64,000 bases of DNA. Origin: a virus. The position numbers were made by a program, and so were the translations under genes. Numbering within the stretch: position 1 is the first letter of the stretch; each line of letters opens with the position of its first letter. Below, piece by piece: positions 1-64,000 of this stretch. The notes under the pieces are model-generated. The model was not told the DNA's origin. It ran no database searches and saw only the letters and a program-made list of their open reading frames with translations. The stretch lies in IMG/VR virus record IMGVR_UViG_3300050500_000608. One strand, 5' to 3'.

Positions 1-667
1 CCTGTATACGCTCCGGAGTTATTCCTTTTACAGATTTCTCCATCATAGCAAAGTCTATTTCTGGCAATCCATCCTTACCTAACAGAATATTTCCATCACG
101 CCCGCGTTTGTATGGGATATCTTCTAATGTGGAATTGGGATCTAAATCCTTGATCACTCCGAGTACTTTCTTATTGACATCTGTAAATGGAGTATAATCT
201 CCATTAAACACAGATGAAATGTCTCCATCAGATAGCCAGTTATTGACCTGCTTTTGGAAGTACCACTCATTCGAAGGCGAAGAAGCTCCTTTGGATTGAG
301 CCTCTTTCATCTTTGCCATTCCTGCTTTATATCGACGTGTAGATTGCTCAGCCCCCTGTATGATAGGATCACTGGCTATTTTGGATGTGAGTACACCCAC
401 AGAATTTACCAGTTGCTGATTGGAGAAATCACGCTGAACGATCTTACTTACTTCTCCCTGCAACTGCATAGTACGCTTCTGTAAATAGTCTTTCTGCTCA
501 GGCTTGATTACTTCAATACCTGCAACAGAATCTATATAAGATTGGACCTTCCTTACCCCTTCATTGTACTGCATCTGCTTTGCCATGCCTACGCGCACAT
601 AGTCATCTACAGGCAGCTGTGAGATATAAGGATTGAATGGTATAAGTTGGTCTGTAAATGATGCCAT
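1..667 (-). CDS. Large virion cargo-like protein, N-terminal part (runs off the window)
   Basis: Hand translation from ATG at 667: MASFTDQLIPFNPYISQLPVDDYVRVGMAKQMQYNEGVRKVQSYIDSVAG. It directly follows the 1776-aa gene, where Crassvirales carry cargo/virion-RNAP genes. Not in the ORF track because it is truncated. Confidence 0.7.
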   Translation of the reverse strand, partial: MASFTDQLIPFNPYISQLPVDDYVRVGMAKQMQYNEGVRKVQSYIDSVAGIEVIKPEQKDYLQKRTMQLQGEVSKIVQRDFSNQQLVNSVGVLTSKIASDPIIQGAEQSTRRYKAGMAKMKEAQSKGASSPSNEWYFQKQVNNWLSDGDISSVFNGDYTPFTDVNKKVLGVIKDLDPNSTLEDIPYKRGRDGNILLGKDGLPEIDFAMMEKSVKGITPERIQ

Positions 668-671
668 TTCT

Positions 672-3600
672 TTACTTTTTATTCAGTGGAGGTACAGTCA
701 TAAGCGGTAGATTTCTACGTTTCATTTCCAGATCCAGCGCTCTTTGCATCTCTCTGAGATCAAAATCATCATATTCTGTATAACCTTTCACGTTACCCTG
801 TGCATCATATCTGGTTACTGTACGCAAATCAGGAGTCTGATTAGCTGCCCGATTTCCTGAGAAATTGAATAATGCATTAGGACCAAAGTAGGTGGCCTTC
901 AGACCGCCATCTTCTTGGGGCACGAATCTATAATCATACAGATTTTCGTAAGCTGCCAGACGCTTGTTTTCATATCTATTCTGCATATACTTACTCGATA
1001 GACTGTTCACAATCATCTGGTTTGTTGCACGAGTATTACTACGTGCCTGCGACTGACGTACCATCTGAGTATCAGCCAGTGCCAGGTTCTTCAGATTGGC
1101 ATCATTGAGTAATGCTACATTCTTGTTGGTTACATCACTGGCTATTGCCTGGTTAGTTCTAAACTCCTCACCTTTTACGTTAGTATCAGCAGCATATTTT
1201 TGAGCAGCAAGTTCTCCGAGAGAGGATGGATTTTGTGCTCCGACAGCCCTGCGCAGGGCATTAAATGAGTTCTGATTTGCATTCAGCCTATCCTGGAAGC
1301 TTACCTGGTAGGGTTGATAGAGTTGTGGTTCATACCGCTGTGTAGGTACGGGCTCTACACTATTGGTAGCTGCTGCATATATCTCTCCAAGGAGCTGGTT
1401 TATATGCAGCGGTTCTACATTGCTGGGCAGATTTACATCATCTGGTGGATTCAATGGATCATATGGCGGTTCCACTGTACCAGGTCTGGGTCTTTGTGCA
1501 CCTGGAGTGAATCCAGGCACATTAGGAAGATCATATGGGGTAAATGGAGGTGCCACAGAAGGAGTTTTAGCCCCTGGGCCATATCGAGTACCTTCACCTT
1601 GTTTCATGGTACCAACCATGAGTTCGAACTCAGCAGGACTCAAATCACCTACTTTTGCATTACTTAATGCACTCAAGTCATACTTATAAGGATGTTTGCC
1701 AGTCCATTTATGAATGGCCTTATCAATAGGCAAATTCTTGTACTCAGAACTTTTCAAAAGGGTACGCATTGCCTTATCGCCAGCTTCTTTGTTAGGGAAA
1801 ACAGCGAAGTTCCCACCATCATCAGCAGGTGGGCCTTTTATGGCACCCATTTTCTTGGCAAATTTGCCCCATTTGATATTACCTGGATTGTTATTGCGAT
1901 CCGCCATTGTGGGATCATTTATAGCTCCTCCTGCCTGGTAGTACCCCTTACCTTTTACTTTCTTTCCCTTCTTGGCTTTTGCCATTCTGCCAGCCGAGAG
2001 CTTTTCAGCATCCAGTCCAAATTCATCTGCTGTGTCCAACATTGCTTTCTGTAAAGCAGAAAGACTCTCCTTCTTCTGTGCCAGATCACGTTGACCCAGC
2101 TCTCCGCCTTGCATCATTACCATGCCTGAATTGAACTTCAGCTTCTCGAATTTATTGGAAGGGTTGGCTTCATTGACATACTTGGATCCACTTGTTTTCA
2201 ATCTATCGTAGTGTTGCTCCTTCTTGGCAATCTCTTTAGCGACAGTTTTGAACTTAGTTCTTGTACCAGGCAGGTACATATTGCCAAATATATTCAGGTT
2301 ACCTTCTGTATCCTGCGCAGCATATTCTCCACCTTCAACTTCTACAGGTGTACCATTATAGTGCATACCGATCCCACCGTTATCATGAGAAGCACCTTGA
2401 AACTCTACTGTGCCACCATCGTAGGGATTGTATGATGCAAGCTTGGAGTTGCCACCCCACATAGTTCCTATTTGTCCGCCATCATCATAGATCACACCCC
2501 CTTTTTTAAGGCTGGCTGTAGCCCCTGCGATAGGAGGAGTAGGAGCACTTAAATAGGATGGTCTCATCGCAAGGTCACCTCTCTCAGAGAAGGATACCTG
2601 CCGTGTTTTTGGATCATACTTGTATTCTCTACCATAGCTCTTTGTACCCTCTGTGTTGCTTACGCCAACAGAAGGAGTAAGCTGGAGACTTGCAAAGCGT
2701 CTTCCATAATTCAGATTCCTTACATCATTTTCACCTTCTTTGGTACCATATAATGGTTGACGACCCTGCTGCACATTGTAGGAATTCACATCCTGTAATG
2801 CTCCAACATATTCATTATAGTCCTCAGGATTGAGCGTAGACTGAACTTCAGCAGGTGTCAGATAATCATCAAATGGAGTATCCTGCACATACTTCTCTGC
2901 ACCAGCCATATCTCCTGTCCTTCTCAGACCTGTAAGACCTGTGAAATAATCTTTGAACCCTTGAGGATTCTTTGCTTTCAACTTGTCATTTAGAATGTTC
3001 TTGAAATGACCCAGTCTGGCGCTCGCCTGATAATATTTTTCCTGCGCAGAAAGTTGGGGCGCGCCAGGTGCTGTATTATTCACCTGAGTACCCATCTGGG
3101 CCTTACCAGCAGCTACCATTCCAAAGTATTGTTTCTGCTTCTTGGTGAGTTTCTTACCGCTTGCTGTACCATCTCTGAGCATCTCTTTTGCTTTTGCTGC
3201 ACTCAGGCCCGCGCGAGCCATTGGATATTCCATAACTCCATCCGCATTGAAGTTATAATCCTGTCCAGGCATCATCATCATTTCCTCTCCTAAGGAGCCT
3301 TTTTGAATAGGACGTGCCATTATAGGTTGAGAGACTCCCTGCATAGTAATATTACCACCAGGTATAATATTGTAAGGATTGTTAGCAGTTGCACTACCAT
3401 CGAGATAGCCAGTATTATTGATTGGACCTCCCTGTTGGTACTGTAACCATTGCTCAAAAAGATCTGTGTTGGGGTATCGAGGACCTACTTCACGGAATTC
3501 TCTACCATTCCAGTTGACCTGACCGCCTTCTTTATACTGAATCCACTGTTCAAGCAAATCAGTATTTGGATACCTGGCAGGCACCTCACGAAACTCTTTT

Positions 3601-62896: not shown

Positions 62897-63461
62897 AAAG
62901 CCTTAGCTTAAGACTAACAGTGAAATCGGACCCAGACGATCAGATTTAGAGTTGCGTCAAAAGCTTAAGGTTTATAGTGAATGGATGAAGCCAGGTAGTT
63001 CGGACTATCCTGATAACGCAGGTTCGAATCCTGCCCCCCTCTCATAGGAAGCTGAACTATTTGGCCCGGCAAAACTTTCGGTTTCTACCTGAAGTTGTTT
63101 TTAGAGCAGTCGGTAATTTTCTCATAAGTCTTAGGAAGCCGGGCCAAAATTTCTTGCATATATGCTTCGGCGCAACAGGGACATGGTCCTGTGTTAGCCC
63201 TTTCTTATATGCATAGGGCCGGGAGAGCTCTCTACGCGTAAGCAATCTCTTAGCAGGTGAGTACAATGCGTGCTCAGCCTGCTCTCTGAGGGGGTAGTAT
63301 AGTTGGTAGTACATTGGGCGTCAAGCCTCAGCATAAGGCTACCTGAACGCGTCATCCAGTTTACCAAGCAGTGAACTCATAATTCACAGTAGACTTGAAA
63401 TCTACTCGCTTAAACACAAGGGAACTTCAGACAGGATACGATCTGGAGTTCCCATTTTTTT
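62897..63461 (+). ncRNA. Large structured RNA with a circularly permuted tRNA core and twin anticodon-loop mimics
   Basis: T-arm at 63018-63034 and acceptor 3' strand at 63035-63041 lie upstream of the acceptor 5' strand (63288-63294) and D-arm (63297-63312). Many nested helices. Confidence 0.8.
63420..63461 (+). terminator. Intrinsic terminator closing the ncRNA
   Basis: GGGAACTTCAGA/TCTGGAGTTCCC 12-bp stem plus T7. Confidence 0.8.
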
Positions 63462-63483
63462 GTTCATCTGTTAAAAAAGATAT

Positions 63484-64000
63484 ATGTCACTGAAACAAAT
63501 GCCACAGAAAGATCTTCTCTCATTTCTTGGAGATCCTTACATATCTGGGTCAGATAAAGTAGAGGTTATGCAGGAGATTATGCGAAGGCAGCGGGCAGGC
63601 CAGTTAGTTCCATCAGAGAGTGAGGAGATTAATATAACAGGTCGCAGAAAGAAGACAAGAATAGCAACAGGAAACAATTCTTTAAATACACAAAACCAAA
63701 AAAACATGAGTAGTTCAGCATCCCTTCAGGAAAGGGCCAATCAGTTCATGATCAAGGAAGCAAAGGTAGAGCTTAAGGAAGCTGTCAGCAGCTATCCTGA
63801 CCTCAAAATTGAAGAAGGTCAGCGCATGGATGTAATGCATTCGCCGGAGACCCGGAAAGTAATTCTGCCTTTGGGCCTTAACAAACTGCAGGCCGCTTTC
63901 AACTTGATTAAGCAGTTCCAGGAAGAAGAAACTCCTCGTACTTACAACCGTACTTATGAGAATTTCTTCATCAATGATTTCCTTACCGCCATGCAGATCA
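63484..64000 (+). CDS. Partial ORF, possibly an AAA-ATPase N-terminal region
   Basis: Open from ATG 63484 (alternative ATG 63706) to the window end. KVILPLGL...FQEEET resembles phage AAA N-termini, but no Walker motif is visible. Confidence 0.45.
   Translation, partial: MSLKQMPQKDLLSFLGDPYISGSDKVEVMQEIMRRQRAGQLVPSESEEINITGRRKKTRIATGNNSLNTQNQKNMSSSASLQERANQFMIKEAKVELKEAVSSYPDLKIEEGQRMDVMHSPETRKVILPLGLNKLQAAFNLIKQFQEEETPRTYNRTYENFFINDFLTAMQI

Follow-up and report, generated by a model that had tools for sequence, protein, structure and literature searches.

The closest published counterpart of the element described here is the 17-bp dyad repeat of the Cluster O mycobacteriophages, TGTTCGG-N3-CCGAACA, which is present in 34 copies, 24 of them between genes or near gene starts, and as the same word in all five members of the cluster; its function and its reader are unknown (Cresawn et al. 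2015, PMC4351075). We found no publication describing such a dispersed palindrome in crAss-like phages. The subject of this report is the 9-base palindrome TCTCNGAGA, which is scattered through a 64,000-nt stretch of DNA (the window, meaning the full stretch) of the virus record IMGVR_UViG_3300050500_000608, carried by a soil crAss-like phage. Like the Cluster O dyads, it is an invariant inverted repeat around a free centre, and it too is dispersed along a phage genome in over 30 copies.

An evenly spaced palindrome under selection at the DNA level

The window holds 42 exact copies of TCTCNGAGA, against 1.36±1.33 (maximum 6) in dinucleotide-preserving shuffles, and the word ranks far above all other 4-N-4 and 4-4 palindromes. 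A preliminary description of the window had listed these 42 positions, 34 with A or T and eight with C or G at the centre, had put the expectation at about one copy, and had reported many one-mismatch copies as well as sites read in different frames (LRE at 751, SLR at 5670, FSER at 7342); its positions, centres and frames are accurate, the peptides being DLRE, SLRK and FSER. The preference for A/T at the centre is significant (34/42, p=0.002). Its further claim that the palindrome is genome-wide holds over the 98.3 kb recovered after a walk along ENA contigs encoding identical proteins, which extended the window by 34.3 kb to the left: this extension contributes 23 further sites, giving 65 exact copies where 1.4 are expected, with the density unchanged left of the window. 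The more permissive form YCTCNGAGR has 83 sites in the same 98.3 kb.

The architecture of the word is strict at the core and graded towards the edges. The core CTCNGAG occurs 69 times in the window against 10.8 expected, with T...A outside it in 42 cases and another Y...R pair in 15 more, and one-mismatch copies of the full word cluster at its two outer positions (CCTCNGAGA and TCTCNGAGG, seven each). Some sites have longer arms, of 6 bp (e.g. CTTCTCTGAGAAG) or 7 bp (CTCTCTCGGAGAGAG), and in both gene arms the flanking bases are biased out to ~9 bp, with pyrimidines making up ~70% of them 5' of the word and purines 62-74% of them 3' of it. The spacer is strictly 1 nt, words with 2- and 4-nt spacers being at background. 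The isolated half-site is barely enriched (TCTC 358 vs 306 expected under a Markov model), so it is the complete dyad that forms the unit. Next in rank comes CTCTNAGAG, with 20 copies, but this palindrome is not a separate motif; it represents the same sites one base out of register. A general effect of junctions between pyrimidine and purine runs is likewise ruled out, as only the complementary TCTC/GAGA arms are enriched. Besides this word and coding repeats there is no repeated 11-mer, and a secondary palindrome, ATCCNGGAT, reaches seven copies against 0.9 expected (e.g. at 5088 and 6630).

Most sites, 38 of the 42, lie inside genes, in all three frames (7, 15 and 16 in frames 0, 1 and 2) and at any relative position (0.05-0.99); the other four are intergenic. 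The preliminary description had argued that peptide selection alone is insufficient to explain such sites, and had proposed a codon-preserving shuffle and synonymous-site conservation in relatives as checks. Both checks bear the argument out. The 38 in-gene copies compare with 3.4±1.7 (maximum 9 in 500 shuffles) when synonymous codons are shuffled within genes and the proteins kept, and with 1.06 when codons are permuted, so that the excess does not vanish under either null. Moreover, 38 of the 75 peptide contexts able to encode the word do so, where 2.7 would be expected. Taken together, these values indicate that both codon choice and, by about three-fold, amino acid sequence have been adjusted to accommodate the word.

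Positions of the word are conserved in relatives from other samples, here denoted by L and G numbers. L234, which has 12 copies in 23.9 kb and is 77% identical to the window phage in nucleotide sequence, keeps 10 of 12 sites, compared with 12% of other 4-N-4 palindromes and 13% of all 9-mers (p=6e-7), while L235 (17 copies in 27.3 kb, 73% identity) keeps 11 of 18, compared with 5% of other palindromes (p=1e-7). In both comparisons the central base of the kept sites changes freely. The same holds for a different word in a sister lineage (lineage A, below), where G001 and G002, at 77% identity, have 43 of 82 sites in common, compared with 22% of controls (p=5e-8); another six are displaced by one base, and compensatory turnover of lost sites did not exceed chance. 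Synonymous positions follow the same pattern. Among third-codon bases inside the arms, taken at codons with the same amino acid in both genomes, 28/29 are identical to those of L234 (background 51%, p=1e-7), 29/36 to those of L235 (background 49%, p=1e-4) and 86/106 between G001 and G002 (background 60%, p=3e-6). Selection on TCTCNGAGA thus acts at the level of DNA, not peptide.

The sites are also spaced more evenly than chance allows. Over 98 kb the closest exact pair is 218 bp apart, where 7.9 pairs within 200 bp would be expected, and the coefficient of variation (CV) of spacing is 0.75 for exact sites (P=0.007) and 0.70 for YCTCNGAGR, near-cognates included (P=0.0004). Sites recur along the chromosome every ~1.2-1.5 kb, at ~1.5 kb in the window phage; G001 has ~9 in nearly every 10-kb bin at flat density, and the spacing CV in lineage D is again 0.70. 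Such over-dispersion speaks for each site having a local job, a second site nearby bringing diminishing returns. The longest stretch without an exact copy (38187-43989, 5.8 kb, with a single near-cognate at 40387) may hold recently acquired genes that have yet to gain the word.

Finally, the word is symmetric with respect to strand. In G001 the inner pair of the lineage A word varies independently (T/A 45, T/G 30, C/A 21), sense-strand T..G and C..A combinations are equally frequent (46/40, 27/23 and 23/18), and the flanks are not complementary beyond chance (Watson-Crick pairing 28%). Neither centre nor flanks of TCTCNGAGA carry a coding-strand bias, and there is no orientation asymmetry of the kind found in Chi, KOPS, DUS/USS or the Cluster A stoperators. 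Since a hairpin would favour T..G over C..A on the sense strand, their equality indicates that duplex DNA is read through two equivalent half-sites, which is the signature of a two-fold symmetric reader.

Lineage-specific dialects of a common design

The family, as gathered from IMG/VR, JGI and Logan, comprises phages of ~105-130 kb, which average protein identities divide into deep lineages; some 60 of its genomes, in Logan, JGI and ENA assemblies, are near-complete at ~125 kb. Lineage C, with the window phage, L234 and L235, uses TCTCNGAGA (65, 12 and 17 copies). Lineage A (G001, G002, G003 and L203) uses CCCYNRGGG in 104, 98, 23 and 10 copies, with at most 2.1 expected in each; lineage B (G005, L221 and L197, more weakly G004 and L256) uses TCCNGGA, in 38, 21 and 18 copies for the first three; and lineage D (L257) uses CTCNNNGAG in 37 copies against 3.6 expected. 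Each word is enriched in its own lineage only and is near expectation in the others, with the exception of TCCNGGA, which is enriched 2-3x across the subclade. In the window phage this word occurs 39 times against 16.6 expected (98 kb), and it may be either a more ancient word or a second one. When centred on N, all four words consist of four pyrimidines, N and four purines, the centred forms of the other dialects being CCCY-N-RGGG, xTCC-N-GGAx and CTCH-N-DGAG.

Beyond these lineages the signal falls away. In the outgroups G006, G008, G009 and G010 and in phage Lbo-JY46, any dyad is at most 2-3x enriched, and in the outgroup genomes no long, asymmetric, repeated word takes the palindrome's place. 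Strong palindromes that seemed specific to many distant relatives were partly small-sample noise (TCTTNAAGA and TTGTACAA are just 2-6x enriched genome-wide), and under a stricter null dyads in the wider family reach 2-8x. As negative controls the dyad scan included unrelated phages that carry RecA. An unrelated RecA-encoding phage, L213 (IMGVR_UViG_3300020200_000159), has TACNGTA 16 times in 21 kb against 3 expected, possibly another dispersed dyad.

Proposed reading, candidate readers and rival explanations

We consider it somewhat probable that TCTCNGAGA forms a selected array of sites on duplex DNA, bound by a two-fold symmetric protein with a half-site specificity that has drifted between lineages. 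In full the tag is (Y)TCTC-N-GAGA(R), rich in pyrimidines on its 5' flank and in purines on its 3' flank and evenly spaced on the chromosome, and the word is one dialect of a Y4-N-R4 design common to the sister lineages. Its reader, we infer, would be a homodimeric sequence-specific protein acting on double-stranded DNA, most probably phage-encoded, each subunit of which would read one pyrimidine/purine-tract half-site with a preference that has drifted between lineages. Because the whole chromosome is covered at ~1.2-1.5 kb and sites avoid one another within ~200 bp, each site probably serves its own neighbourhood, and the tag may mark or organise phage DNA for a whole-molecule process, namely packaging or condensation, recombination-dependent replication, or nuclease protection. 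The preliminary description had likewise proposed a dispersed site for a dimeric protein; the palindrome does behave as a two-fold symmetric duplex site with two independently degenerate half-sites.

Several proteins of the window are candidate readers (Table 1). The three binders named previously, at 11844, 31006 and 31478, are indeed HU/IHF-like or winged-helix in predicted structure, but none could be linked to the word; the HU/IHF-like protein at 31006..31485 is a candidate either for the reader or for an architectural partner of it. Its gene shares 8 nt with the 31478 gene immediately upstream of TerL, a layout that recalls the IHF, gpNu1 and gpA of λ packaging initiation; the pair also recalls the fused HU-wHTH (HU-HIG) proteins of Bacteroidota. 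The 11844..12326 gene lies between two crAss tail-ring genes. The paralogues at 46222..48644 (46222-47424 and 47436-48644), which combine sigma region-4-like and further helix-turn-helix (HTH) domains and agree with a separate earlier claim of extended sigma paralogues, are specific to lineage C and have no homologue in G001 or G002. A phylogenetic-profile screen for proteins that track the word left a short list of enzymes and ORFans. One member of this list, a subclade-specific protein at 31947-32333 that adjoins the winged-helix gene, has a domain starting at Met21 (108 aa, predicted fold pLDDT 94.6); its family comprises no fewer than 107 clusters at the 50% identity level.

A number of observations weigh against this interpretation. 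The profile screen, fold comparisons and candidate comparisons did not find the reader. The 31947 protein matches no known fold, DNA-binding folds included (best Z in the PDB 3.8), homologues of the 11844 and 31478 proteins occur in G006 (43% and 29% identity), a relative without a strong word, and ParB (PF02195) is absent from G001, G002, G006, G008 and G009. About 27 kb of the phage genome, from RecA to the right end of the window, lies outside the recovered sequence. Four-bp arms 1 bp apart are more typical of restriction or modification enzymes than of HTH dimers, and a repair drive constantly restoring the word would equally yield positional conservation. A host-encoded reader or a host-wide signature may also account for the word. 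A bolder version of the dimer proposal, which we rate as speculative and rather unlikely, is a re-programmable chromosome barcode: each lineage of this family of soil crAss-like phages would write its own Y4-N-R4 palindrome every 1.2-1.5 kb, and a rapidly evolving dimer encoded by the phage would use it to distinguish phage DNA from that of the host and of co-infecting relatives during packaging, recombination-dependent replication or nuclease protection. Switching of the word would then amount to kin discrimination or incompatibility between lytic phages.

Among the rivals, the one that survives best, although we judge it unlikely, is that the word serves as the recognition site of an enzyme, from phage or host, that modifies or restricts DNA in a sequence-specific manner, either because modification density is selected or through a methyltransferase-linked short-patch repair drive, as reportedly proposed for cyanobacterial HIP1. 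The words have the typical Type II form, being short interrupted palindromes whose half-sites abut and whose degeneracy is symmetric (CCCYNRGGG); TCCNGGA is the PfoI site, and the concentration of one-mismatch copies at the first and last base is a further point in favour, a similar concentration having been reported for HIP1. At L236:14177-15420 the window phage also carries a DUF559 endonuclease-fold gene (weak PvuRts1I similarity, E=0.03) directly upstream of its sole methyltransferase, an S-adenosylmethionine enzyme that lies outside the window, is present in lineages A and C, and is absent from G006 and G008. This methyltransferase, however, has a catechol/sugar O-methyltransferase (COMT-like) layout, with PDB relatives of that type alone, and no other lineage has a counterpart of the DUF559 gene; a GIY-YIG endonuclease adjoins the same methyltransferase in lineage A, so the locus is probably a hot spot for mobile nucleases. 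Complete G001 and G002, with ~100 sites each, lack PF01555, PF00145 and PF02086 DNA methyltransferases, and this, together with the COMT-like type of the shared enzyme, led us to set aside a phage DNA methyltransferase as the partner of the word. The two methyltransferase-like proteins that had been read from the window found no support: the 60 window proteins scanned against Pfam include none, nor any ParB-family match. A mutational drive should, furthermore, leave random spacing, which is not what the over-dispersion and ~200-bp exclusion zone show; transition-type one-mismatch variants are not depleted; and phages normally avoid host restriction sites.

A shade less probable is a signal that acts strand by strand, such as a site of priming or nicking, which the palindrome would present on both strands at one place. 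The even ~1.2-1.5 kb spacing is near Okazaki-fragment length, RecA and a DnaB-like helicase are among the family's own genes, and lineage-specific dialects would fit such a signal; the near-background frequency of isolated half-sites speaks against it, as does the lack of any long asymmetric dispersed word in the nearest motif-less relatives. Lower again we place a host-genome signature, an iterated palindrome or uptake-signal-like word acquired through host mutation or repair bias or through recombination. The density of one site per 1.2-1.5 kb, the in-gene, all-frame location and the point-substitution origin do resemble HIP1 and uptake signals, and the words differ between lineages that presumably differ in host. 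Against these resemblances stand the over-dispersed spacing, the recurrence of the Y4-N-R4 design in four phage lineages and the stability of the word across phages 23-28% apart in nucleotide sequence and from different samples. Clues to the host are few, an ECF sigma factor matching Proteobacteria at just 28%, and the lead towards cyanophages and HIP1 is weakened by the nearest cultured relative, Lbo-JY46, which has zero HIP1 and no dispersed word. There is only a slim chance that the explanation lies outside the dimer proposal and all these rivals. Scarcely credible is a small hairpin in messenger RNA or single-stranded DNA with wobble pairs in the Y/R flanks, or a codon or peptide by-product: the inverted repeat and its flanks could in principle pair as RNA, and the G001 spacer looked variable at first, but the strand symmetry, the chance-level flank pairing and a 1-nt spacer that cannot form a loop rule out the hairpin, and the protein-preserving and codon shuffles, in which the excess is gone, rule out the by-product.

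Table 1. Exact and near-cognate sites of the palindrome and candidate reader genes in the window
Feature	Coordinates	Strand	Remarks
TCTCNGAGA site	751..759	.	letters TCTCTGAGA; in 1776-aa gene; not kept in L235
TCTCNGAGA site	1213..1221	.	kept in L235
TCTCNGAGA site	2582..2590	.	kept in L235
TCTCNGAGA site	4084..4092	.	exact match
TCTCNGAGA site	5670..5678	.	one mismatch in L235
TCTCNGAGA site	7342..7350	.	kept in L235 with changed centre
TCTCNGAGA site	8067..8075	.	exact match
TCTCNGAGA site	8629..8637	.	exact match
TCTCNGAGA site	10651..10659	.	exact match
TCTCNGAGA site	12690..12698	.	exact match
TCTCNGAGA site	15890..15898	.	exact match
TCTCNGAGA site	19131..19139	.	exact match
TCTCNGAGA site	22244..22252	.	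exact match
TCTCNGAGA site	24142..24150	.	6-bp arms, CTTCTCTGAGAAG
TCTCNGAGA site	25618..25626	.	inside portal gene
TCTCNGAGA site	25854..25862	.	inside portal gene
TCTCNGAGA site	27059..27067	.	6-bp arms; inside portal gene
TCTCNGAGA site	29798..29806	.	inside TerL gene
TCTCNGAGA site	30250..30258	.	exact match
TCTCNGAGA site	32301..32309	.	6-bp arms
TCTCNGAGA site	32941..32949	.	exact match
TCTCNGAGA site	33375..33383	.	intergenic; left edge of divergent-arm spacer
TCTCNGAGA site	33833..33841	.	exact match
TCTCNGAGA site	35298..35306	.	intergenic
TCTCNGAGA site	36966..36974	.	intergenic
TCTCNGAGA site	37532..37540	.	intergenic; 7-bp arms, CTCTCTCGGAGAGAG
TCTCNGAGA site	38178..38186	.	exact match
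TCTCNGAGA site	43990..43998	.	after longest gap (5.8 kb)
TCTCNGAGA site	44263..44271	.	exact match
TCTCNGAGA site	46556..46564	.	exact match
TCTCNGAGA site	47136..47144	.	exact match
TCTCNGAGA site	48013..48021	.	exact match
TCTCNGAGA site	48359..48367	.	exact match
TCTCNGAGA site	51271..51279	.	exact match
TCTCNGAGA site	53321..53329	.	exact match
TCTCNGAGA site	53961..53969	.	exact match
TCTCNGAGA site	54507..54515	.	exact match
TCTCNGAGA site	55004..55012	.	exact match
TCTCNGAGA site	55459..55467	.	exact match
TCTCNGAGA site	56696..56704	.	exact match
TCTCNGAGA site	60409..60417	.	exact match
TCTCNGAGA site	60820..60828	.	exact match
Near-cognate YCTCNGAGR site CCTCAGAGG	4733..4741	.	
Near-cognate YCTCNGAGR site CCTCTGAGA	9816..9824	.	
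Near-cognate YCTCNGAGR site CCTCTGAGA	14502..14510	.	
Near-cognate YCTCNGAGR site CCTCTGAGA	16597..16605	.	
Near-cognate YCTCNGAGR site TCTCTGAGG	18364..18372	.	
Near-cognate YCTCNGAGR site TCTCTGAGG	28341..28349	.	
Near-cognate YCTCNGAGR site CCTCTGAGA	30893..30901	.	
Near-cognate YCTCNGAGR site CCTCTGAGA	31581..31589	.	
Near-cognate YCTCNGAGR site CCTCTGAGA	33632..33640	.	right edge of divergent-arm spacer
Near-cognate YCTCNGAGR site TCTCTGAGG	35584..35592	.	
Near-cognate YCTCNGAGR site TCTCTGAGG	40387..40395	.	
Near-cognate YCTCNGAGR site TCTCAGAGG	51514..51522	.	
Near-cognate YCTCNGAGR site TCTCAGAGG	52017..52025	.	
Near-cognate YCTCNGAGR site CCTCTGAGA	58649..58657	.	
Near-cognate YCTCNGAGR site TCTCTGAGG	63283..63291	.	
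Second HU/IHF-like protein, 160 aa	11844..12326	-	Atlas TM 0.53/0.69 to Bac_DNA_binding; candidate
HU/IHF-like protein, 159 aa	31006..31485	-	Atlas Bac_DNA_binding clusters, feature score 0.93, TM 0.51-0.65; no Pfam hit
Winged-helix protein, 106 aa	31478..31798	-	Atlas TM 0.54-0.58 to IclR/MarR-type HTH; candidate reader
Two tandem ~400-aa multi-HTH paralogues	46222..48644	+	Pfam HTH_23, Sigma70_r4_2, GerE; candidate readers

The carrier phage and comparison with known systems

The window consists of two divergent arms. The left arm encodes capsid, portal, TerL, crAss-type tail ring proteins 1 and 2 and two giant proteins, and the right arm mostly ORFans, together with sigma-like and HTH proteins, NADAR, DUF7873 and cREC_REC. 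Assignment to Crassvirales rests on the tail rings (PF24228 and PF25702), the PHROG portal, TerL and major capsid protein, the divergent arms and the giant virion proteins; in tblastn searches the portal matches crAss-like phages of Bacteroidota, with Leptolyngbya phage Lbo-JY46 as the best match, and crAss_MUZ is present in the relative L257. The left extension adds proteins of 885, 4150 and 2134 aa, the COMT-like O-methyltransferase, the DUF559 gene and RecA. The three giant genes are consecutive (L233:7344-28862) and occupy the position that virion RNA polymerase and cargo genes take in crAss-like phages; no Pfam domain is recorded for the 4150-aa protein. The RecA of the family is of bacterial type (E=3e-92; G001, L107:5560-6561), is at most 52% identical to bacterial RecAs and is an old family gene. 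NAPRTase and PRPP synthetase (NAD salvage), an Acb2/Tad1-like sponge, cREC_REC, NADAR and a dGTP diphosphohydrolase-like gene are also encoded in the family, whose gene set is a rich counter-defence set.

Other repeats in the window are distinct from the dispersed word. Isolated perfect palindromes with 9-bp arms lie at 30184-30202 (AGTGTATCC-C-GGATACACT, which contains TCCNGGA) and at 39831-39849 (GTAAACATA-A-TATGTTTAC). GTAG (319 vs 213), CTAC and GTTGTAG are strongly over-represented because (GTAGTTGTAGTA)n runs, read on the minus strand, code for repeats rich in Tyr and Asn in three proteins of the tail region (13360-14775, 14776-16188 and 17267-18184); similar repeats occur in G001, G003, G004 and G009.

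Phages are expected to purge short palindromes, and yet here one is paid for with synonymous and even amino acid changes at roughly 80-100 evenly spaced places per genome, sister lineages paying for different words of the same design. This pattern is indicative of a DNA transaction, so far unrecognised, that spans the whole chromosome in Crassvirales, which are among the most abundant phage groups. If the reader were found, it would offer a natural series of related proteins with differing short-palindrome specificities, as well as a rule for engineering or recoding such phages, whose tags would not be freely removable. The words also provide a simple marker by which fragments from metagenomes can be placed in lineages with no need of alignment.

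Among described systems, Type II restriction/modification sites are likewise short interrupted palindromes with symmetric degeneracy, but they are normally depleted in phages, whereas the words described here are enriched 25-60 fold and conserved, with no cognate enzyme gene found. The dispersed arrays of ParB, Noc and KorB (parS, NBS ATTTCCCGGGAAAT and OB) resemble the present one: their palindromes, too, have half-sites that abut and are distributed across a replicon, where dimers read them; the Noc site is itself a pyrimidine-run/purine-run palindrome. However, those sites span 13-16 bp and require a ParB-family protein, whereas the word here has 9 bp and no such protein is found in G001, G002 or the scanned window proteins. 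HIP1 (GCGATCGC) shares eight specified bases, a density of ~1 per kb, location within genes in all frames and an origin by point substitution. HIP1 and the alternate highly iterated palindromes, however, belong to cellular (cyanobacterial) genomes, whereas the present sites belong to a lytic-type phage and are evenly spaced; and while HIP1 is reportedly associated with cognate orphan methyltransferases, the complete relatives here have none of the three families sought. The Cluster O dyads differ in having 7-bp arms and a 3-bp spacer where this word has 4-bp arms and a 1-bp spacer, and in lying mostly between genes or at gene starts, where 38 of the 42 sites here lie inside genes at any position. 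Finally, one word is used throughout Cluster O, whereas in these crAss-like phages the word changes between sister lineages.

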